DNA of 64,000 nt from Torpedo marmorata (lineage: Eukaryota), in the NCBI GenBank assembly GCA_977017645.1, contig OZ360220.1, positions 161,386,001-161,450,000 on the forward strand, in the 5' to 3' direction. Position numbers and translations under genes: made by a program. How positions within the stretch are numbered: the first letter of the stretch is position 1; the number at the start of each line of letters is the position of its first letter. Shown here piece after piece: positions 13,173 to 58,367 of this stretch. The notes under the pieces were generated by a model that was not told where the DNA came from, searched no databases, and saw nothing but the letters and a program-made list of their open reading frames with translations.

Positions 13173-14686
13173 CTACTGCAAGTTTGATTTCAGAAACATT
13201 AGCTTGTTGATCACCTCAGGTGACAGCTGCCTCTTCTGCTTTCCTGAAAATGTCTCAAAGTTATTCAGACAGCCACTTCGCACACCAACTGCTGGCACCG
13301 CCAAAAGCCAAAAGGCAAGTTTGGCTAACTTGGGGTGCTTATGAGTGGCATTAGACCAGTAACCAAAGAGATCTGTCGTTTTATTGGGCACAGGTTCCTT
13401 TAGATATTGAAATACTTCCTCTTTTCGCTCATCCTGATTCATCTCTTTGTTTGAGGGAGTTTTCAGGTTTTCACTAATCCCACGCACTCGCTTTCTTGCT
13501 GGTTGAAATTCAACAACATCTTCACAAGATTGCCCGATATCCGAAATCATTTCACACACTCGACTAATGACTTCGTCCTGCTGGTAATGTGGCACTGACC
13601 TCAAATGCTTAGAGTGTGGGTCAAGGACCATGGCTACTTTGTGAGCATTCTCCATTTTGAAGTTCTCCTTCAAAGATTCCAGAAAGAGGTGGCAGAGTTT
13701 GCTTACACTGCCTGCATCATTAGCTTTGGAAGTGAAAAGTTTCTCTAGTCTGATGTAGGTTGGGAGTACAAGCTGCAATGTTGGTTTACTTTCACAACTC
13801 AGTTCTATTACAGCCTGTTTTACTGGAGCCAAAATGGCTGCAAGATTACTCAACAAACTTTTATTGCAATTTTGGAAGTGTTTGAGCTCCTTTCTGCCAC
13901 CGATTAGTTCTCGCAACTGTTCATATTTCTCGTGTACAAGGAGGAGAGAGTCTGCAACAGAATTCCAACAACAGGGAGCCTGCTGCCCTTCAAGAATATT
14001 GGATAACTCTGGAGTGACAGTACCTTGTTCCAGTGAACTCATGATTTGTATGCAGTTACTCACAAGTTCAGTAACTTCTGGCATATTTTGTGCCTGCAAT
14101 GTTCTTTCATTAAGTACACTCCTTATTGTTGAGTTCAATGCACAGGCTGAGCACCGCAGACACATCCCAGCTTTCAACAATGCAGCAGAGCTGACTTTGC
14201 TATCCGTGACATAAATCGTTCGCATCTCTGACATTACAAATTCAGAAAGGACATTCAACACCCACTGATGAACCTGCTCACCAGTTTCTTTCCCATCAAC
14301 CTCTTTAATACCCAGCACATATCTTTTCATTTGCAACCCCTCTACCTGATGAGCTGTTAGAATGTAGAATGACTCTGACCCTACATTCTGACAATGACAG
14401 GTGACACCTATTCCCCAGCAAGCATTGCTTCCAAGTGCACATGTCACTTTCACCTTCACCTGGTTGTACATTCTGGGCAGATGCTTCAGGGCAAGTGTGT
14501 TCATATCGCCAAGGACATCAGCTACAGGAAAGGATCCATAACGTGCGCCAATGTCCACCAGTGTCTGAGCAAGTTTAACGAAGTCTTTCCCATTAATCAC
14601 AGTCAGTGCCTTCAGATCAGCGCACATCACTCTGAGCAACTTTTCAGCAACATGTTGTCGTTCTTTTTCAAGGACTGAGCTATTTA
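13173..14686 (-). CDS. ZNF618: ZNF618 terminal coding exon (hAT/Ac transposase-derived RNase H-like fold and C-terminal dimerisation domain)
   Basis: The 509-aa ORF matches recalled vertebrate ZNF618 C-terminus (LLRVMCADL, LALKHLPRMYNQVKVKVTCALGSNAC, PTLQLVLPTY, LAKLAFWLLAVPAVG, NKLMFLKSN). Acceptor gttttcatttgcag before 14686 in phase 1; TAG stop at 13173-13175. Confidence 0.96.
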
Positions 14687-15012
14687 CTGCAAATGAAAAC
14701 AATTTTTAAGCATAATAAAAATGTCTTCCCAACAAGCTAATCATTTTACAGTAGTAATATGACAATGAATAAATGAATTGGTTAAACTTAGTGAATTCTC
14801 ATTATCAAAAGACAATGGCAGCAAAATTCCCACGAGTATTTTTTATATGCCTACACCTGCAGGTTGAGTCTTGTGAAACAATGGAAAGTACAATACAAAA
14901 TTACCCAGACTTGCACAGTAGTGAAATAACATTGGTACAGGGCAACTTTAGCAAGGAAGATTTATACCAGTTAATCCCATAGATTTATTTTAAATTAATA
15001 ATGAAGTACATT

Positions 15013-19844: not shown

Positions 19845-20358
19845 AGTAACTGATACTCTTCAGGGATGGAAAACTGCTTTTCTTGCCTGGTTTTCCTTTC
19901 AAATGCCCCACCCGCTTATTTCAACAGGCGAGTAGCTGGCCCACTAGTGAATAAAATAATGATCATAAATTAATTCCAAATGATGGAAATTTAAAAAATA
20001 TCAAAATTGTTAGTAAAGGCAACATTTACTCCAATTCTAAATTAACTCTCAGCAGGGGGTTTTAGAGATAGCGACACTGTTGTGTGCTGGAGTCTTACAC
20101 CAAATACAATAGATTTCCTTTGCTGAAGGATATTTGTTGGATTTTAACAATGCAACAGTTCCATATTACTATTACTGAGACTAGTCAGTCTTTAAAACTT
20201 CTAGCTTGTTCAATTACCGTATTTGATGGCATATAAGACCCATGGGCATATAGACCACCCCCCATTTCAGCAGGGAATATTAAGAATTATTTTTTTTTAA
20301 TTTTTTTTTTAGTGTATTTAAGGGTAAGCAGAATGTTTTTAATTCAGTTCTCACTCAC

Positions 20359-20630
20359 TTTGTTATGCGGCTTCTCCTCAGCAGGCCGCCCAGCCCCAGG
20401 GTCCCCACTGGAAACCTGCGGGTGTTGGCGAACAGGTTCCTTCTGCACCTCTTGCGCTGCTAGTGGGGGCTGCAGTGGTCACCGAGGAAAGTGAGCGGCG
20501 GCTCCAGAAAGCACGGGCTACCCGAGGGAAGGTGGCCTGCGAAGCTGCGGGCCCACTTCCTGGACAGCCGCCGCACCTCTGCGGGCTTCTTGAAGCTGGG
20601 CGAGTAGCCGGCGACCTGCTCAGCGGCCAT
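20359..20630 (-). pseudogene. DONSON: Captured DONSON exon 1 (pseudogenised fragment)
   Basis: gccgcgATGG Kozak, then MAAEQVAGYSPSFKKPAEVRRLSRKWARS...*QRKRCRRNLFAN, versus recalled human DONSON [28 protein letters not shown]...ARRNPFAR. Ends at AAA|gtgagt donor; in-frame TAG at 20460-20462. Confidence 0.85.
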
Positions 20631-20632
20631 CG

Positions 20633-20790
20633 CGGCAATAACGGACGGACAGCGGGGGATCCCTCCCTCCCTGATACCGGGGCCAGGCGGCAATACCGGG
20701 CAGACAGCGCGGGATCCCTCCCTCCCTGATACCGGGGGCAGGCAGCAATACCGGGAGGATAGTGGGGGAATCCCTTCCTCCCTGATACTG
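20633..20790. repeat. ~50-bp GC-rich tandem repeat (about 3 copies) just upstream of the captured ATG
   Basis: gcggcaata..cgg..acagcgggggatccctccctccctgataccgggg repeated. Confidence 0.8.
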
Positions 20791-21914
20791 AGCCACGCAG
20801 CGACGATGATCATTGTCGGCGTTACTCACCATTATCACCCTAATTTAAACTTTGCATATAAGACCCAGGGGATATTTTTGAGCCAAGTTTTGGGGAAAAA
20901 AGTGGGCCTTATATGCCGTCAAATACGGTACTTGCTAATGACTGCATGCGAGATTTGAACTCATGTGCATGATAATAACTCAATCTAGTTACTTAATTAT
21001 TATGCTACTATACCCAACTGCACAATAGTGCAGTGTTATAGAGCACATTTGCATACTCAAATTTGTGTTACTGCTAAAAATGACGTATAATTTATCGGAC
21101 ATAGAACAAGACAGCACAATACAGGCTCTTTGGCCGACGATGTTGTGCCAAACCTGTATAAACCTACACAATTAATCCTTCCCTCCCTCACAGCCCATAA
21201 ACTTAAAATTTTCTTGCATCCATGTGCCTATCCCAGAGTCTTTCAAAAGTCCCTCCACCACACCCCCGGCACTGCATTCCAGGCACCGATCACTAAAAAA
21301 TCCCACCTCTAACATCTCCCTAAACTTTTCTTCACTTACCTTGTTTCTCTACATTTTGATTTGCTCATTAGATATGCAGTGATAGAAACCCTCAAAACAG
21401 GAAGTTTTTCTGACTCTTGGATTAATTATATTCCAAATGTTTTGGACAATCCCCATTTGTCAGTTATTCTTAGATATTTGTTAATTTGGCAACTGTTTTG
21501 AAAATATGACAAAAAAATGAAGACTCAGAAATTATCTTGTGCCAAGAAGTTCAATGCAACAAACGAAAGGATTCAAGGGATTTGAAGATTACTAAGAGGC
21601 CTGGAATTCTGAAGGATCATATTTACCAAGAACCCACGATCACCTGACTCGCTGTAATGGCTGCTCCAGATGGATATTTAGAGAGCAGGTCCCATATAAA
21701 TATCCCTTATAGTTTAAAAGATTATAATTTCTTAAGAATTAAAGCTATAATCCATATTTTGTTTGCCATGGTCCTTTGCCAAATTTCATTTCATCCAAAC
21801 AATATCCCCTGCCTCTTTCTGAAATCTGGAAATATCTCAGAAATGTATTGATTTTAAATCTAATATCAATCTGTTCAGAAACTAGGGAAGGTTGTCTAAG
21901 AATATAGTGGGGTA

Positions 21915-27794: not shown

Positions 27795-29366
27795 CTGAAG
27801 CAGCAAAACAACAATTAAACAATTAACATCAAGTTCTCAGCTCCTGTGCTTAGCAGGAAAATTCTGAAAATGAAGAATAATAATCTCGTTAGCTACACAA
27901 TCATTCTGGAAACTAAGCTACAGGCTAAGTTGTTTTGCACCTCAGACAGAACAGAGAAGTATATTCTCTTTGCTGGTTTGTCCTTGGGAATGGAATAGTT
28001 AAGAATCCTTCCCCTGCAGCACTCAGAAGCTTTATTGCTGTATGATGGGAAAATAGGTGAAGAAAGTGCACTCCAAAAGAAAAATACAGGTAAATTATTG
28101 AAGAGAATTAAACATTTACTGCTACTTTTTCTTAGAATTTATCAGACCTCCAAAATGTAAAAAAAGAATATGCATAGCAATTTATATACCGTAATAATAT
28201 CAGTTCCTCAAGATTGTGAATAATTTGCTTCCACTCTGGTTTCGGAGAGTTTGAGACGCTCGTGCATGAATTCTTTTAATGTGGGGTGGCTGCTACACAG
28301 TTACACTAAAGACTCCACAGGGGGTCCAATGGTAAGGTAGTCCAAGACTAGACCAGGCTCTACTGCATAGATTTAGCATAACCTATGCAGATACACATAT
28401 TAAGCATTGGAGAGGTGACTGAAGATTAGAGGTTTCTGGGAGAAGTGGTCATGGTTACAGGCTTCAGAAAATGCAGCTACTGGTACAACAATGGGAGGGA
28501 GGAGAGAAAAATGATCGACAATTGTAGAAATACCATGGAAATGGTAAGCAGCAGTGGTCAGGGTCGGCCTCTGGAGAAGATAGAGCAGCCTGCAGCTGGA
28601 GAGTGGGGAAGCCTGATAGAGGATTGCAGGGGAAATTGAAAGGAGTAGAGATGAAAGGGGGCAAGTGAGGAGAGAGTGATGGGAAGCAGAGGTAGGGAAA
28701 TAGAGGGGGAGTGATTGTAAAGGACCAAGGTGCTGAAAAAGTGATATATTACAGCACATGAATACAGAATAGTACAGCACAGGAACGTCTTTCAGCCCAC
28801 ATGTCCAAGCCGAACAATGCCAAATTAAACAAAAACTCTGCTTGCACACGAGCCACATCCCTTCACATTTGTATCCAAAAGCCTCTAACGTTACATCCTA
28901 TCTGCTTCCACCGTACATCTGTCAGACCTTTCCAGCGACCAACCACTGTATAATAAAAACTTACCCCACAATCTCCTTTAAACTTTCTCCCCTCACCTTA
29001 AAAGCACGTCCTCTAATGGTTTAGACAACAATGAAATTGTCTAGGCTGGCAATGTCATTAAAACACTGAGAATCTGAACATGCTCACAAATAATAAATGG
29101 CCAACCACAACATTTAATTCCAGGCCCAAATTCCAATAAATTACATTTCTGTGGCACTGGGAAAATACCTTAGTTTCCCATGGTTTTTAATTTCAATCAT
29201 TTTATGTTGTAGTTTTCAGATGAATTCAGTAGAATAAGGCAGACTTCAGCTGCACAGTTGCCATTCCTTGTGTATTTCAGATTTTAAGATTTTCTTTTAA
29301 ATTAAAAATACCTACTTCTGCTCAAGACTGGCTTAATATTATGTGACACAAGCTAATTTGACACTA

Positions 29367-30129
29367 CCGTATTTGACGGCATATAAGACCCCCCTTTTCC
29401 CCCAAAAATTGCCTCAAAAACGACCCCGGGTCTTATATGCGAAGGTGACATTTTGGTGCCGCCATTTTGGGCACCGAGTGGAGTCCAGGAAGCTGGCCCG
29501 CAGCTTCGCGGACCACCTTACCTTGGGTGGCCCCTGCTTTCCGGAGTCGCCGCCACTCACTTTCCCCGGTAAGGCTCGCTCTCTCCCTCCCATTCGCTCT
29601 CCCCGCCCGCTTTCTCCCCGCCCTCGCTCGCTCTCACCAACAGTACTTTGAGGGGAGCGCTGGGCCTCGATGATCAGGCTTTGTTCGACGAGCACAGACC
29701 CTCGAGCAAATTGAATGAGGCGCGGGGGCGGGTGGCAGTGAGCGAGTGGCCTGTCAAGCTCAGCTCAACAGGCTGCTCGCTCACTGCCACCTGCCCCCGC
29801 GCCTCATTTAATCTGTTCGGGGGGGCCATGCGCGTCGTACAAAGGCCCAGCGCTCCCCTCAAAGCAAAGCAAGCGATCGATTGTCTGCTCCCCAAGACGG
29901 TGGGCCTGGGCCCTGCCCGTTGTCCTGGCTTCTCTCCCTCCCACCCTCGTGCGCCCGCAGGTTCTGGCACACCTGTCAATCAATTAGCGTTTGGACAGTT
30001 GGGGGGAGGGGGGGGCGTGCGGCGGGCAGGAGGACGTGTTGCTGCTGTGAAGGTAAATACACAAACAAATTTTTCCTGAAATCTCACGCTAAAAATGGGG
30101 TGGGGGGTCCTATATGCCGTCAAATACGG
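29367..30129 (+). mobile_element. Second non-autonomous Tc2/pogo-type element with partial DONSON cargo and internal palindrome
   Basis: TA TSD; TIR CCGTATTTGACGGCATATA. Left ~80 bp is the reverse complement of the right end of 20217-20928. 29483-29572 encodes SRKLARSFADHLTLGGPCFPESPPLTFPG, homologous to the 20.5-kb cargo. Confidence 0.88.
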
Positions 30130-31192
30130 TAATTTAGCAAATAGTTCAAAAATGATTTTCCCTGCAGATTTCAGGAGCTGGAGAGCGCAAGGTTACAGTA
30201 AAACATAATGGAGCCAAATAAAATCAAGGAATTGCAGAAACTTGCAGCTAAAAATTTATGACTTTCTTAAAGATGTTAGGAATTATATTAAAGCACTATC
30301 CTGTTCCCCACATGAAATCATAAAAAATCTGCAAAATGAGATTATTAGGGCAGACTTGCACCTGAAGCAATATCTCAAATACACCCATTCACAACACATT
30401 AATAAATCTCCATTTTATTGTACAATAATCTTACACAAGTGATAATGAAGATACCTGAAAACACTCCAATGACGTGCATCAAGCCTGTCATTAAAATTTC
30501 TTACTTGGGCTACACTTACACCCTACTGTTTTCAGAATTTATAAATTATCAGGCAGCCCAATGTAACAGGACCAGACAAATTGAAAAATGACAGCAGGTT
30601 ATGGAAGGAGACCTTTGTTCACCACCCACAATGAAATTTATGAGACAGCTACAAATCCAAGTACCAACTCCACCGCTAAACACTTTACAAAATACACCCG
30701 TTTCATTAGGATGACTCCAAGTGTTGGGCGGGGGTGGGGGTGTGCATTGGGATGGGTTCGAGTGACGGCTTTGTTCAGTCACAGTACTACACTGGTAATT
30801 TTCTCCATTTGAATGCCGCCAGCCACCCTGGAATTAAGCGAGAGTAATACTTCGGAAAGACCAAGCTCCATGTTTCCAGAGCTAACCACCTCCCTAGGAA
30901 CCCCGGATGGCTTGCACAGCTTTCACAAATAGCTGTCCCTCTCTAATACACTAATAAGAAACACCGGAGATTCATACTAGCCAATACGTTGATGTAGGCT
31001 AAGCCTGTGGCTCTGGAGGTACTTGCATCTTGAAGAGTAGATACATGTTCACAATGCAACCTGGCCAAAACTACTAAGTTAGCCTGATCTACGTCCTACC
31101 AGCTGTATAAACAATCTTTGTAGAGCATATGCAATGAATCAGAACTGAGAATTGTCAAAACGTGCAGATCCATGAATTAAAAGAGATCATAC

Positions 31193-31760: not shown

Positions 31761-32458
31761 CTGCAAACAATTGGGGAAAAACAAGGTTAGTAAATGTGCT
31801 TGTATTCCACTTTCTAAACCACAAAACCATTCTGACAATCTTAAGCTCTTATTTCAGGCAGTTTTAATTTTCAAACTACTCTATAATCTTAGTGCTCCCC
31901 ACCAACCACCCCCCACCACCACGGACCTTTCCTTGTCTATATTTGCTCATTGCAATTTGTGTAGGTTGTCACAACTATGACAGGCTGCAATCGTGGAGGC
32001 TAATCACATGACAATCAATTTCAGGATACATCCAGTTTGAGACCATTATCACTGCTGCTAAATAATAATTGGATCATCAATAATCAAATATCTTTACATT
32101 TGTTTTTGCTGTTTTAGGACAAAAAAGGATCATGGGGCAAGCCTACAAATATAAACTATGCTTTTTATGGGATGATGAAAGAATACTTGGGAAATTCACA
32201 TTCCATTCCCTGTGATTCCTGGACAATCCAGAAGAATGTAATCCTACTGAAGGATTAAGCCATCTGACACCCTCACAATCTAGCTTTATTCACAGAGAAT
32301 ACTTTGGTTAAAACAATAGGGAAAGGAGGGAACAGGCAACATCTCTGGAAGGGGATCAATGATAATAAGAATTTTATTCTTTCAGATAGAGATGACAGTA
32401 ATCAAGGATGCAGACATAGCAGGAAATGAGAAATTTTGGACAAAGGCTTCATCTAGAT

Positions 32459-32830
32459 CGGTGGTTTTCAAACTGCCCCCCTAAACTCACATTCCACCTT
32501 AAGCAATCCCTATCCCTGTGATTAGTAAGGGATTGCTTAAGGTGATATGTGAGTGGAAAGAAAAAGTTTGAAAACAACTGTTTTAATCGCACCTAATTAA
32601 CTCGTTATGTGCACGGTTTCATAACTCCAAAGGAAATGGGCCAATGACAATTTTTCTCAAGCCAAATATTTCAGTAACAATTGGGTCTAGAGCAGTGGTT
32701 CTCAACCTTCCCTTCCCACTCACACACCACCTTAAGCAATCCCTTACTAATCACAGAGCACTTATGGCATAGGGATTGCTTAAGGTGGAATGTGAGTCTA
32801 AGGGGGGGGGGGGAAGTTTGAAAACCACTG
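32459..32830. mobile_element. hAT-Charlie-like dimeric MITE
   Basis: TIR c(a/g)gtggttttcaaact; flanks atctagat / ttctaggt fit the NTCTAGAN target; an internal second monomer starts at gtctagag|cagtggttctcaacc. Confidence 0.8.
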
Positions 32831-33214
32831 TTCTAGGTCAAAACTTACTTAATTTTCTTTCAACTTGTTTTGTACCAAACATGTTACAAAAGAGAGAGCT
32901 GGCCAGAAAACAAAATGTTATAATAATGAAATCACAAATTGAACAGGAAACCCCAACTCCCACCCTAAATTTTCCCTGCAGATGAAGAAATTAATCCACA
33001 TACTGTACACTCTTTCCAACTCAACATCCACAGTGCATGGGTGAAACACAAAGTACCCTTCTCCAAGTCTTTCACAAAATGAGTCAACCAGGCGATGATC
33101 ATATGCTTATGCACATTTTTGACCAAAGTGAATGTTATGAATGCAAAATGAACTTTAAGATCTCATCGGACACTCAGCAAAACCAATCTTCCTAACATCA
33201 ACTTCACTCTTAAG

Positions 33215-35197: not shown

Positions 35198-35368
35198 TCG
35201 ACCCCCCTTTTTCAGCCTCATTTTAATGGTTTTATGGTATATCCGGCGTATAAGTCGACCCCCAAAAATCGCGATGATTGAGCTGCTGGGCGTTGACCGG
35301 CGTATAGGTCGACCCACAACGATCGCGCTGATTGAGCTGCTGGGCGTTGGCTGGAGGTGATTGTTATC

Positions 35369-36694
35369 ATGGAGGCTCAATTGAAACTACGAAAGTATGA
35401 GGCGAGTTTTAAATTAAAAGTGATAGAAATGGCCAAGAAAACCAACAACTGTGCTGCTGCAAGAAAATTTGATATATACGAGAAGTTGGTAAGAGATTGG
35501 AGGAAGAAAGAAGATACTTTAAGAAAAATACCAAAAAGGCAATGTTCGATGAGAAGAGGAATCACTCGTTGGCCAGAGTTGGAAAATCATGTTGCAGCAT
35601 GGGTATGTGAACAGAGGCAAGATTGCTACATAGTCACCCGAAATAAAATAAGAACATTTGTACTGAAGTGGGCAAAGTCACACCCAGAACTCAGTAACGA
35701 TTTTGAAGCTACAGTAGGCTGGTGCAACCGTTTAATGAACAGGAAAAATCTGGTATTACGTCAAAAAACTAAAATTGCTCAGAAACTATCAAAAGATCTT
35801 GATCATAAAGTTGTAAGTTTTCACCAGTTTATTATACGTAACCGGCAGAAACACAAGTTTGCATTGGCAAATATTGGAAACATGGACGAAACCCCCATGA
35901 ATTTTGACATGATAGGCAATAGAACAGTGGAATGGAAAGGTGTGAAAACTGTGCAAACAAGGAGTACAGGACATGAAAGGACCAGGTTTACTGTGGTGTT
36001 ATCGTGCATGGCCGACGGGACAAAGTTAAGACCCATGGTAATCTTCAAACGCAAACTTAAACCTAAAATAAATTTCCCAGCAGGTATTTTTGTACATTTT
36101 CATGAAAAAGGATGGATGGATGAAAATGGTGTAAAACTATGGATAGACAATGTGTGGAACAGGCGGCCAGGCGGTTTATGCAAGGAACGGAGTTTGCTGG
36201 TCTGGGATATGTTTCGTAGCCACTTAACTGAGAAGATTAAAAGTAGATTAGCACAACATAATACTTACATGGCGGTTATCCTGGGTGGTTTGACGTCTAT
36301 ATTGCAACCTCTCGATGTCTGCTTGAATAAGCCATTCAAAGACCACGTGCGTGAAGAGTGGAATACATGGATGTCGAGTGCAGAAAAATCATTTACAAAA
36401 GGCGGGGCAATGCGTGCTGCATCGCTTGATGTGCTGTGTGACTTCGTGCTCAAGGCATGGGACAAAGTGAAAGTAGAGACTATAATAAAAACATTTAAAA
36501 AGTGCGGTATCTCTTGTGCAATTGATGGTACGGAAGATGATTTATTGTGGGACACTGATGACGAAGCTGAAGACGCCTCATCAGATACAGACTGGGACCC
36601 GTATGATGACTGTTTAAACAGTGAGATCCCGGATGTGCTTGCTGAGATCTTTGCCTCAGACGATGATAGCGAAAGTGATTTTGAAGGGTTCTAA
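35369..36694 (+). CDS. pogo-family DD35D transposase (Brinker-like DBD, CENP-B HTH, DDE_1), 441 aa from ATG
   Basis: YEASFKLKVI..AARKF; WPELE..GWCNR; catalytic NMDET, VWD and QPLD with 35 residues between D2 and D3; acidic C-terminal tail; no stops. Confidence 0.92.
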   Translation: MEAQLKLRKYEASFKLKVIEMAKKTNNCAAARKFDIYEKLVRDWRKKEDTLRKIPKRQCSMRRGITRWPELENHVAAWVCEQRQDCYIVTRNKIRTFVLKWAKSHPELSNDFEATVGWCNRLMNRKNLVLRQKTKIAQKLSKDLDHKVVSFHQFIIRNRQKHKFALANIGNMDETPMNFDMIGNRTVEWKGVKTVQTRSTGHERTRFTVVLSCMADGTKLRPMVIFKRKLKPKINFPAGIFVHFHEKGWMDENGVKLWIDNVWNRRPGGLCKERSLLVWDMFRSHLTEKIKSRLAQHNTYMAVILGGLTSILQPLDVCLNKPFKDHVREEWNTWMSSAEKSFTKGGAMRAASLDVLCDFVLKAWDKVKVETIIKTFKKCGISCAIDGTEDDLLWDTDDEAEDASSDTDWDPYDDCLNSEIPDVLAEIFASDDDSESDFEGF

Positions 36695-36758
36695 ATGTCT
36701 TGTTGTTTTCAATAAAAATGTCAATGAAAATTTGTTGCAGTCGGGTTTTTTTTTGGTT

Positions 36759-36903
36759 TTTCAAGGGTCGACTTATACGCCGAATCGTGTTTTCAAGGGT
36801 CGACTTATACGCCGAATCGTGTTTTCAAGGGTCGACTTATACGCCGAATCGTTTTCAAGGGTCGACTTATACGCCGAATCGTGTTTTCAAGGGTCGACTT
36901 ATA
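36759..36903 (+). repeat. ~32-bp subterminal tandem repeat (ttttcaagggtcgacttatacgccgaatcgtg, about 4.5 copies)
   Basis: Directly visible; each unit contains the inner TIR motif. Confidence 0.9.
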
Positions 36904-47771: not shown

Positions 47772-48149
47772 CAGGGTTTCCCAAACTTTTTCTTTCCACT
47801 CACATACCACTTTAAGTAATCCCTATGCCATAGGTGCTCTGTGATTAGTAAGGGATTACTTAAAAGTGGTATGTGAGTGGGGAAAAAAAAGGTTGAGAAC
47901 CACTGCTGTAGACCCAATTGTTACTGAAATATTTTGGTTGAGAAAAATTATCATTGGCTCATTTCCTTTAGAGTTATGAAACCGTGCACATAACGAGTCA
48001 ATTAGGTACAATTAAAACAGTAGTTTTCAAACTTTTTCTTTCTACTCACATACCACCTTAAGCAATCCCTTACTTATCACAGAGCACTTATGGCATAGGG
48101 ATTGCTTAAGGTGGAATGTGAGTGGAAAGAAAAAGTTTGGGAAACCCTG
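47772..48149. mobile_element. hAT-Charlie-like dimeric MITE (inverted relative to 32459-32830)
   Basis: TIR cagggtttcccaaacttttt; same internal hairpins and spacer. Confidence 0.8.
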
Positions 48150-49591: not shown

Positions 49592-49796
49592 AAGTGCTGG
49601 AGAAACTCAGCAGGTCATGTGGCATCTACAAAAAGCAAAAGCCAGTCGACGTTTCGGGCCCAAGCCCTTCTTCGGAAGTGCTGAAAATCAGGCAGAATGG
49701 CGATTTTCAACACTTCTTAAGGGTTTGGGCCCGAAACGTCAACTGGCTTTTGCTTTCTTTCGATGCTGCATGACCTGCTGAGTTTCTCCAACACTT
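49592..49796. repeat. Penelope pLTR-derived ~200-bp inverted repeat
   Basis: Arms aagtgctggagaaactcagcaggtcatg...gggcccaagccctt and its reverse complement. Confidence 0.8.
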
Positions 49797-54254: not shown

Positions 54255-55366
54255 GGCCTTTTCACACCGCCGAAGTTTGACGACCCTCCTAGGACCCGGG
54301 TAAAGTTCTCGGGAAGGCTGCACCTCCGGGGCCTTTCACACCGCAGCCTTACTTACCTGGTAAATCGGCAACCGGGCATTTTAAGGGGGGTCCTGCCTCC
54401 AGCGATGACGTCGCGAGTGACGCGTTACGCACTCACAGGAAGCGTTTTGTACTATCCTTGCAAATTTTTCTTCTATTTAAAAAAAAATCCTTTTGCATGT
54501 AGGTCTGATTTGAACTTTCCAGCAATATTTTAATTTTTAAAATCCAATTACATGCATTTTTAAATGTAGATCTTTAGAGTCGCATTTTCCCTGTTGAACT
54601 TTAATTTCACACCGACCCAATGTTCGTCGACAAAAGCTCAGCACCGGACCAGCCAATGGGAATCACGGGGGGAAGGGGCCACGGTCATTCGGAGGGCCCC
54701 TGCAGTGCTTGCGGCTGGAGGTGGCCGGTACCGGGAGAACTGCAGCAGCGGGATCAATGGCCGTATTCATTACCCATAATCCCTCACACAGCTGGAACCG
54801 TTCTGCCAGTGCCAGGGAAACGCAGAGCGGTTCCAGCTGCGTGAGGGATTATGGGTAACGAAGACGGCCATTGATCCCGCATTGAGCTGCCGCCGCCCTG
54901 AGCGGGCCTGTTGTTTTTTGATTTCAGTGAATAGGTGAAAGCCAATCGACAGGAGCGTTGAAAGCTACAAGTTTTGCAATTTTAAAATACTTTAAATATT
55001 GTGGCTTAGTTCCCTTTGGCATCATTAAAGTAACATTTCTATTGTTGTATCTCTTATTTCTATTGTTATTTGACGGCTTGTCAGTCAGTCAGGGGTTTTA
55101 TGTGACGCACGCACTCGCTGATGTCACGAAGCTTACCTGGTAAGCCATTTGTGCTTTTTACATCGCCAGAAGGGGATTGGCGGGTGAACTCGGCTGGGCT
55201 CCGAGAGTAACCCCCCCCCCCCCCCCCAAGGTCTCGGAGCCCGGTCGATTTTGACCTGCCTTGCTTGGTTGGGACATTTCACACCGCACGATTACCAGGT
55301 AAGTTACTGGGTAAATTGCCCGGTTAACCCACATGTACCACATGTACTCGGCGGTGTGAAAGGGCC
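54255..55366. mobile_element. PIF/Harbinger-like non-autonomous element
   Basis: TIR ggcc(t/c)tttcacaccgccga; cag on both flanks (possible 3-bp TSD); subterminal sequence shared with 19499-19844. Confidence 0.75.
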
Positions 55367-55523: not shown

Positions 55524-57324
55524 CCGTATATTTCGGCGTATAAGTCGAGTCTTGAAACCCTCAAAAATCTCTCAAAAAATGGGGGTCGACTTATACGCCA
55601 GATATACTTTTGAGACCTTAAAATCAGCTCAAAAACCACTCCACGCCGATTCGGCGTATAAGTCGACCCTTGAAAACACGATTCGGCGTATAAGTCGACC
55701 CTTGAAAACCCGATTTGGCGTATAAGTTGACCCTTGAAAAACCAAAAAAAACCCCGACTGCAACAAATTTTCATCGACATTTTTATTGAAAACAACAAGA
55801 CATTTAGGACCCTTCAAAATCACTTTCGCTATTATCGTCTGAGGCAAAGATCTCGGCAAGCACATCCAGGGTCTCACTATTTAAACAGTCATCGTATGGG
55901 TCCCAGTCTGTATCTGATGAGGCAGCTTCACCTTCGTCGTCAGTGTCCCACAATAAATCATCTTCCGTACCATCAATTGCACAAGAGATACCGCACTTTT
56001 AAAACTATTTTATTAGTCTCTACTTTCACTTTGTCCCATGCCTTGAGCACGAAGTCACGCAGCACATCAAGCGATGCAGCACGCATTGCCCCGCCTTTTG
56101 TAAATGATTTTTCTGCACTCGACATCCATGTATTCCATTCTTCACGCACATGGTCTTTGAATGGCTTGTTCAAGCAGACATCGAGAGGTTGCAATATAGA
56201 CGTCAAACCACCCGGGATAACCGCCATGTAAGTATTATGTTGTGCTAATCTACTTTTAGTCTTCTCAGTTAAGTGGCTACGAAACATATCCCAGACCAGC
56301 AAACTCCGTTCCTTGCGTAAACCACCTGGCCGCTTGTTCCACACATTGTCTATCCATAGTCTTACACCATTTTCATCCATCCATCCTTTTTCATGAAAAT
56401 GTACAAAAATACCTACAGGGAATTTTATTTTAGGTTTAAATTTACGTTTGAAGATTACCATGGGTCTTAACTTTGTCCCGTCGGCCATGCACTGTAAACC
56501 TGGTCCTTTCATGGCCTGTACTCCTCATTTGCACAGTTTTCACACCTTTCCATTCCACTGTTCTATTGCCTATCATGTCAAAATTCATGGGGGTTTCGTC
56601 CATGTTTCTAATATTTGCCAATGCAAACTTGTGTTTCTGCCGGTTATGTAAAATAAACTGGTGAAAACTTACAACTTTATGATCAAGATCTTTTGGTAGT
56701 TTCTGAGCAATTTTTGTTTTTTGTCGTAATACCAGATTTTTCCTGTTCATGAAACGGTTGCACCAGCCTACTGTAGCTTCAAAATCATTACTGAGTTCTG
56801 GGTGCGACTTTGCCCACTTCAGTGCAAATGTTCTTATTTTATTTCGGGTGACAATGTAACAATCTTGCCTCTGTTCACGTACCCATGCTGCGACATGATT
56901 TTCCAACTCTGGCCAACGAGTGATTCCTCTTCTCATCGAACATTGCCTTTTTGGTATTTTTCTTAAAGTATCTTCTTTCTTCCTCCAATCTCTTTCCAAC
57001 TTCTCATATATGTCAAATTTTCTTGCAGCAGCACAGTTGTTGGTTTTCTTGGCCATTTCTATCACTTTTAATTTAAAACTCGCCTCATACTTTCTTCGTT
57101 TCAATTGAGCCTCCATGATAACAATCACCTCCAGCCAACGGCCAGCAGCTAAATCAGCGCGATCGTTGTGGGTCGACCTATACGCCGGTCAACGCTCAGC
57201 ATCTCAGGCATCGTGATTTTTGGGGGTCGACTTATACGCCGGATATACAATAAAACCATTAAAATGAGGCTGAAAAAGGGGGGTCGACTTATCCGCGAGT
57301 CGACTTATACGCCAAAATATACGG
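55524..57324 (-). mobile_element. pogo/Tc2-type (Passer) transposon, full-length copy 2 with frameshifted transposase
   Basis: TA TSDs at 55522-23 and 57325-26; 25-bp TIR CCGTATATTT(C/T)GGCGTATAAGTCGA; 11-bp deletion near 56490 and a second shift near 56005 relative to copy 1. Confidence 0.95.
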
Positions 57325-58367
57325 TAGTTCTTAAAGTTGAAGATGAAATTCACTACACAAATGCAAATTCTTAAAAAAAAAAATCACAGTATACATTATT
57401 TCTGCATGCTTAACTTTGTCTTGTGTCAGCTCTTAATGTCTACATGAACCAAACATGTCTTTGTAAATAAGGAATGATGAAAGGAGAGAAGAAATCTGTA
57501 TTTTTATGTTATTGCTGTGTATAAAGCAGTAGATTTTCAGCCATTATGTTAGAGATGTTGAACAAATCCTGATCAGGACAATATTCTTCTCTCCCTCAAA
57601 GTAACATGGGATCTGTTATATCTACCCAAACAGCCTTAATAGGATGAATCAAAAAATGTTTGCTCCTCTGACTTTGCGGTATCCCGATGGCAGTCCACAA
57701 AAGCATCAGACTACACGATTCATTCAACTTTCTCCAATCTAAAATTCCAATTATTATCACAGCCTATGCAAGCAAACATGCCGATCTGAAATTTACATAC
57801 ATATGCACAATACCAAATGGGAAGTTAACTTCAGCAATCCTCAGCAGGTCAGGCAGCATTAATCGAGTTTGAAACAGTGGGAACATTTCAGAACAATCCC
57901 TTCATCAGAAGAGATTACTTTTTAATCTCTAGTTTTTTTTCCCAGATGCAACCCGATCTGCTGAGCATTATCCAAAATAAAAACAGAAAATACTGGCAAC
58001 ATGTTAAGAGTTTGAGATTCAAAAATCCAGGAACTTTTAATTCCAATGTGCATTTATATGTTAATGCACGAACAAAGTATATAAAACATTGCATGTAAAA
58101 ATAGAGGCTTAGAAGCTTACTGCAGAGAACAGCTTATTGCAATAAAGGAACCTGTCAGCTTGAGCTATCCAAATAGCACAGAATTTTTCATGCAAATGTT
58201 CAAAGTGTTACACCAATTTTAAAACACAGTATAGCATCCAAAAAATCTTGTGCATCAACGAGAAATTAAGGACCAACATAAAAAGTTGCATGCTGAGTTT
58301 AGGAAAAAAATGCATTTTTAGGGTAACCATCGTGGCTTCCAGACATCCCATAACATCATATAAACAA

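Follow-up and report, generated by a model that had tools for sequence, protein, structure and literature searches.

How does a small transposon come to carry sequence that resembles the genes of its host, and does the host gain anything from it? The question is raised by positions 29367..30129 of the window, a stretch of 64,000 nucleotides from the 6.2 Gb genome of Torpedo marmorata. These positions hold a 763-bp non-autonomous DNA transposon of the pogo type, whose terminal inverted repeats match and which has TA at each end. A first-pass annotation, made from the letters alone, had described it as a second, "rearranged" member of a high-copy family that carries a piece of DONSON. Our reading, which we hold to be highly probable, is that the element contains DNA from the 5' regions of two host genes, DONSON and PPM1G, that this DNA was captured by template switching, and that the family was spread by a 1.7-kb relative, with no benefit to the host required.

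The element is a mosaic, and all its segments with an orientation read on the forward strand. After the left TA target-site duplication (29365..29366, read in the flank), it opens with the left end of a transposase-coding parent, that is, a terminal repeat of about 25 bp and the region upstream of the transposase start (29367..29483, 90.8% to positions 1-120 of the parent consensus). There follows a sense fragment of DONSON exon 1 (29483..29573, 84.5% to the host locus L064:1563-1659, E 3e-25), then a pyrimidine-rich, microsatellite-like tract (29574..29645) whose length varies in a comparison of copies; it stands where ancestral subtypes have the 3' part of DONSON, and no source was found for it. 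Next comes a palindrome (29646..29864), which folding and alignment to the host resolve into an arm from upstream of PPM1G and an inverted copy made within the element, and then a promoter-proximal repeat unit and 5' UTR of PPM1G, in sense (29885..30047, E 1e-22 to the host locus L282). Five nucleotides (30048..30052) are probably the start of PPM1G intron 1, a putative remnant after the loss of the coding part of exon 1, as suggested by two intermediates, L289 and L290. The right end of the parent, with its terminal repeat, closes the element (30053..30129, 91.5% to parent positions 1605-1675) and is followed by the right TA duplication (30130..30131, also read in the flank). Short, bounded by terminal repeats and a target duplication, present in high copy and lacking a transposase, the element has the properties of a MITE.

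A sister subtype, E1, lies at 20217..20928 on the reverse strand. It has related but distinct ends, and contains a tandemly repeated DONSON 5' UTR, exon 1 almost in full, and 29 nt from intron 1. The two elements, neither of which contains any N, have in common their terminal repeats and an internal stretch of 88-96 nt, which in both has the same orientation relative to the left end. The terminal repeats, the TA on both sides and the cargo orientation had all been read correctly in the first-pass annotation. It had also named two outcomes that would speak against it: only two copies in existence, or a shared segment of some 90 bp that is not from DONSON. We find thousands of copies, and the shared segment is from DONSON.

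A 27-letter pattern taken from the element end has 5,234 exact matches in the genome (2673+2561), and the reversed control pattern has 0; there are therefore at least about 2,600 elements. Among elements found via their internal sequence, only 5-46% of the ends match exactly, depending on the set, which suggests roughly 6,000-16,000 copies for the subtype sets of the window element. We classified 84 elements on contig C1, chosen by their ends. This sample is biased toward copies with intact ends; it takes one end per pair of matches and leaves out L208, whose region faces away from its element, and the final two end matches. The window subtype accounts for 55 of them, a longer form for 21, and 8 are other. 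Far from being a rearranged second member, the window element thus belongs to the majority subtype. Host DONSON is matched by 76 of the 84, all of the window subtype or its longer precursor. No complete E1 occurs among the 84, though 29 other E1 loci were retrieved by another route.

Copies are found on many contigs, with TA at their ends and with flanks that differ when compared by eye in the printed sequence: the family spread via transposition, not segmental duplication. Divergence from the consensus is about 3% outside CpG in all subtypes, and 8-13% at CpG sites; for the parent element it is 2% outside CpG, on best hits only. Since the value near 3% is similar in all subtypes, the steps of the history fell within one broad burst.

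Some copies have features of their own. A third subtype (L173, L197 and L202, on contig C1) has E1-type ends around other GC-rich cargo, which is internally repeated and matches neither DONSON nor the window subtype. An E1 copy, L067, has a large tandem expansion of a 55-bp unit derived from the DONSON 5' UTR. Among L234-L247, several copies have later insertions within about 10 bases of the junction between cargo and right end, and three of them share an identical insert at an identical site; the search pattern had selected such cases.

The identity of the first cargo is given by E1, whose translation matches ray DONSON and, in the PDB, a chain of DONSON (E 7e-5). The host gene is on contig C43, with further exons downstream and without terminal repeats at the captured site. 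The E1 consensus is at 94% to its 5' UTR and exon 1, the match including the intron 1 stretch, and the consensus of the window subtype is at 90% to exon 1. A candidate located 1.2 Mb from DONSON on the same contig turned out to be a truncated copy of the family.

The ggtaag motif at the end of the window fragment (29568..29573, forward strand) had been read as a donor-like site. Alignment of host and subtypes shows that it is not the splice donor of DONSON: the site is inside exon 1, about 160 nt upstream of the true donor, and the letter that makes it donor-like is specific to the element, being absent from host DONSON and from the ancestral subtypes. Its use in splicing is only putative. The longer form fuses the parent's start codon and nine codons in frame to DONSON codon 9, with an overlap of 5 nt; one junction in three is expected to be in frame by chance. 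An 84-nt deletion, which takes away the start codon of the transposase and the beginning of the DONSON piece, turns this longer form into the window subtype.

The host gene itself has changed: compared with the element and with outgroup rays, its exon 1 (L064:1501-1816) has lost one codon and gained another, and both E1 and the window subtype keep the ancestral codon state.

The second cargo had been suspected at 29860-30060, as a captured piece of a CpG island. This proves right as to its nature and wrong as to its start, which is 29646. Positions 29646-30047 derive from the promoter and 5' UTR of the host gene PPM1G on contig C11: its upstream region and 5' UTR are matched by the segments 29646-29778 and 29907-30047 (E 5e-28 and 1e-22), and the best alignment scores 113 bits, where none of 50 shuffles exceeds 28.3 bits. 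The source region has 64% GC and a CpG ratio of 0.94. Locus L282 on C11 lacks a terminal repeat, and six further exon matches lie downstream of it; it is therefore the host gene; in all, 7 exon matches cover residues 1-282 and 349-474 of P0013. Within 140 kb around the gene, the nearest terminal repeat is about 10 kb from the start codon. On the opposite strand of the captured upstream arm (L293/L303, C11 about 25158500-25158900), there is an open, coding-like frame.

The lead to the older subtypes was a loose end in a sequencing run, X1, that was then confirmed in the genome assembly. In these subtypes DONSON is broken by an insert that ends in a phosphatase first exon and its donor, after which DONSON resumes. 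All 20 of 20 older-subtype loci have DONSON and then PPM1G sequence, and their consensus resumes DONSON after the insert. The phosphatase exon matches PP2C phosphatases in the PDB, and PPM1G of rays and sharks at 84-97%; for DONSON also, the closest proteins are those of rays and sharks. Other routes to the source led back to the family. Searches with the window tail and with the hairpin arm returned family members only (20/20 loci each). Two patterns requiring non-transposon flanks gave 38 and 23 matches, of which 15 and 4 were examined: all are copies of the family that were later altered by insertion, deletion or inversion, the remaining matches being judged from their matched letters only.

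The palindrome at 29646-29864 was missed by the first-pass annotation. It is a 219-nt hairpin of -106.5 kcal/mol (z -15.1), and 0 of 200 shuffles are as stable. Host PPM1G has a single palindrome arm and three tandem units, a layout that L289 retains; the hairpin therefore arose within the element. At the right end, L289, L290 and the window element form a deletion series.

One might ask whether the transfer went the other way, the host 5' regions being derived from the element. The tandem units upstream of PPM1G, of a kind typical of repeats, are what this would lead one to expect. Conservation of both first exons extends, however, to sharks, rays, bony fish and amphibians, neither host site has a terminal repeat, and the parent contains neither DONSON nor PPM1G cargo, all of which makes such a transfer extremely improbable. 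We thus keep to capture from the host.

The parent was reached through one of the 8 "other" end-picked elements, L143, which is part of a transposase gene. It is a 1.7-kb element, of which 24 copies were aligned, with matches to BrkDBD, HTH_Tnp_Tc5 and DDE_1; in L216 these score 22.6 bits (just missing the cut-off of 23.4), 61.4 bits and 51 bits. The catalytic spacing is 35 or 36 residues, to be compared with DD35D, as counted by eye across a frameshift in an A-run of the consensus. The combination BrkDBD, HTH_Tnp_Tc5 and DDE_1 is the architecture given for the Passer pogo elements in the passages of Gao et al. 2020 (PMC7386202) cited here; the parent shares it, together with the TA duplications, and the window element differs in having no transposase. 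The passage of that paper on the distribution of Passer names no cartilaginous fish (PMC7386202). The ends of E1 are related to those of the parent but distinct from them, its left end being 84% alike that of the window subtype, and no parent of E1-type ends was found.

From these pieces we propose the following history. An E1-type element would have taken up the DONSON UTR, exon 1 and some of the intron. About 800 bp of PPM1G, comprising upstream region, exon 1 and intron start, would then have gone into the DONSON piece, and fold-back of one PPM1G arm would have produced the hairpin. The left end of the parent would next have replaced the old one, the transposase start being fused in frame to DONSON codon 9. 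The PPM1G coding part would then have been lost and the right end swapped, with the 3' part of DONSON giving way to a simple repeat. Finally, the 84-nt deletion would have taken out the start codon and yielded the window subtype. L290/L291 and copies of the long subtype make the link to the window form. We read the order of events from nested junctions, not from a tree, and 200 closed elements were scored for diagnostic motifs; 3 rows had no motif, and two of the left-end motifs overlap in specificity. The first-pass annotation had spoken of serial cargo exchange. Remodelling did occur; the junctions look more like the result of additions nested in one another, of exchanged ends and of deletions than of a swap of cargoes.

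It is possible to start this history differently, and to suppose that the window subtype captured its DONSON piece from the host independently of E1. The two differ in end lineage, and the DONSON segment shows no derived letter exclusive to them: the letters they have in common are the ancestral DONSON state, and alone are no proof of descent from E1. However, a DONSON piece interrupted by PPM1G is already present in subtypes whose two ends are both of E1 type, and others link the two lineages by pairing the left end of the parent with an E1-like right end. A separate capture is thus very unlikely, and descent from an E1-type element is the reading retained here.

As for the mechanism, the presence of intron 1 and upstream DNA in the ancestral subtypes means that capture was from DNA, not mRNA, and each cargo has its match in a single host locus, on another contig. 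The overlaps at the junctions, read by eye, are short: 5 nt exact between parent and DONSON, and, where the PPM1G insert meets its surroundings, 7 nt (one of them mismatched) on one side and 2 nt on the other. Because the cargo is DNA-level and comes from two other contigs, and because there are short overlaps, a fold-back and end swaps, template switching is the best fit; it would have taken place as the gap at a broken or excised element was being repaired, along the lines of the gap-filling and fork-switch models that the passages cited here of Tan et al. 2021 describe (PMC8277862). The thousands of sites were likely reached via the transposase of the related 1.7-kb element.

The passages of the survey of Tan et al. 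2021 that bear on multicopy capture report 4 such cases of Pack-TIRs (1.4%) in reference genomes, with examples of 3-5 copies (PMC8277862); by that account, multicopy gene capture by cut-and-paste elements of animals is rare in print and low in copy. The present family resembles the Pack-TIRs described there in its terminal-repeat ends around host DNA, its short junction overlaps, the location of the parent gene on another chromosome and the GC-rich 5' cargo of the multicopy cases, and differs by its thousands of copies, its two host genes, its serial remodelling and its in-frame junction of transposase and host gene. What characterizes a Pack-TIR is present: both ends come from one terminal-repeat transposon, to which they are 91-92% alike, more than 100 bp of internal sequence come from non-transposon loci, PPM1G and DONSON, and capture was at the DNA level, with intron 1 of both genes in the ancestral subtypes. 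The filters given in the same passages ask for a unique best hit, a cargo of 80-120% of parental length and at least 90% identity, and are meant for young cases rather than as a definition of the concept (PMC8277862). The window copy, a trimmed mosaic at 74-90% to its parents, falls outside them, and they would likely miss the present family. The family works like a multicopy Pack-TIR, and is unusual in copy number and in its two-gene cargo.

Multi-gene cargo and a bias toward 5' ends are known from the Pack-MULEs of plants, and GC-rich 5' ends of genes, from more than one gene per element, are what is captured here too. The superfamily and the kingdom of these plant elements (PMC5861414, PMC4858842) are different, and here one cargo lineage dominates. 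Helitrons, too, are DNA transposons that amplify host fragments in vertebrates, but they are of the rolling-circle kind and have neither terminal inverted repeats nor TA duplications; gene-capturing ones are known from bats (PMC4224331). In the literature on DONSON and PPM1G with transposons we found no description of the present family, and among the main-text terms of the Squalomix preprint (10.1101/2025.06.08.657570), pogo, MITE and DONSON are unmentioned. Here, a two-gene cargo is found in most sampled members of a family of at least about 2,600 copies, and intermediates make the steps readable. The mechanism of capture, the 5' bias toward CpG islands and cross-talk with essential parent genes become testable in a vertebrate. 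There is also a warning for annotation: captured cargo may hide in a repeat consensus and mask first exons.

There remains the question of what the cargo does. CpG sites of the copies decay about 3 times faster than other sites, as expected of methylated copies. The DONSON frame is broken by frameshifts in 17/26 E1 copies and 5/21 copies of the long subtype; the commonest subtype is without both start codons, and the PPM1G donor is also gone in later subtypes. Together, CpG decay, frameshifts and lost start codons appear to favour selfish spread. In the DONSON frame pN/pS, taken uncorrected for the mutation spectrum, is 0.61 for E1 and 0.58 for the long subtype; the parent transposase has 0.81. 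Such ratios would leave room for weak constraint on the DONSON frame.

One could argue that the cargo was favoured, as mobile CpG-island promoters or as a source of hairpin small RNAs acting on PPM1G and DONSON. Both pieces come in sense from the 5' ends of housekeeping genes and lie downstream of the region where the transposase starts; the hairpin is highly stable and its columns are well preserved in 71 copies; cargo is borne by 76 of the 84 end-picked elements; and the host DONSON later lost its codon and gained the other inside the captured stretch. The rapid CpG decay and the loss of both start codons and of the PPM1G donor argue against this. Moreover, the motifs upstream of PPM1G that we take to be the most promoter-like lie outside the captured part, 0 of 28 Rfam matches to the element reach the gathering score, the matches reflecting a generic hairpin, and host-gene domains are absent from the 85 of 360 window ORFs that were scanned, where all clear Pfam matches are of transposon type and no local role is evident. 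On balance we consider a favoured cargo unlikely, and retain a spread that requires no benefit to the host. The element is covered by run X1 (RNA by our guess, available as contigs alone, share 0.04), where no splice-type joint is seen; we draw nothing from it about expression or splicing.

A bolder conjecture gives the copies a role in the host. They would serve as portable CpG-island promoters, would send small RNAs or methylation signals to PPM1G and DONSON, or would yield a transposase-DONSON fusion peptide from the long subtype, and the two codon changes of host DONSON would then be an escape. This seems quite unlikely; if true, these changes would be an animal case of the conflict known from plant gene capture.

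The window also contains other mobile sequences. Another pogo-type element, whose terminal repeat is different, is present in two copies with 95% identity, at 35198-36903 (forward strand) and 55524-57325 (reverse strand); the left end of the first copy runs into an N stretch, and its open frame of 452 residues (35336-36691) has BrkDBD, HTH_Tnp_Tc5 and DDE_1 above the cut-off. An open frame of 510 residues at 13176-14705 (reverse strand) matches a hAT dimerisation domain. Palindromic repeats at 32453-32836, 47772-48149, 49592-49796 and 54748-54880 are likely further small DNA transposons.
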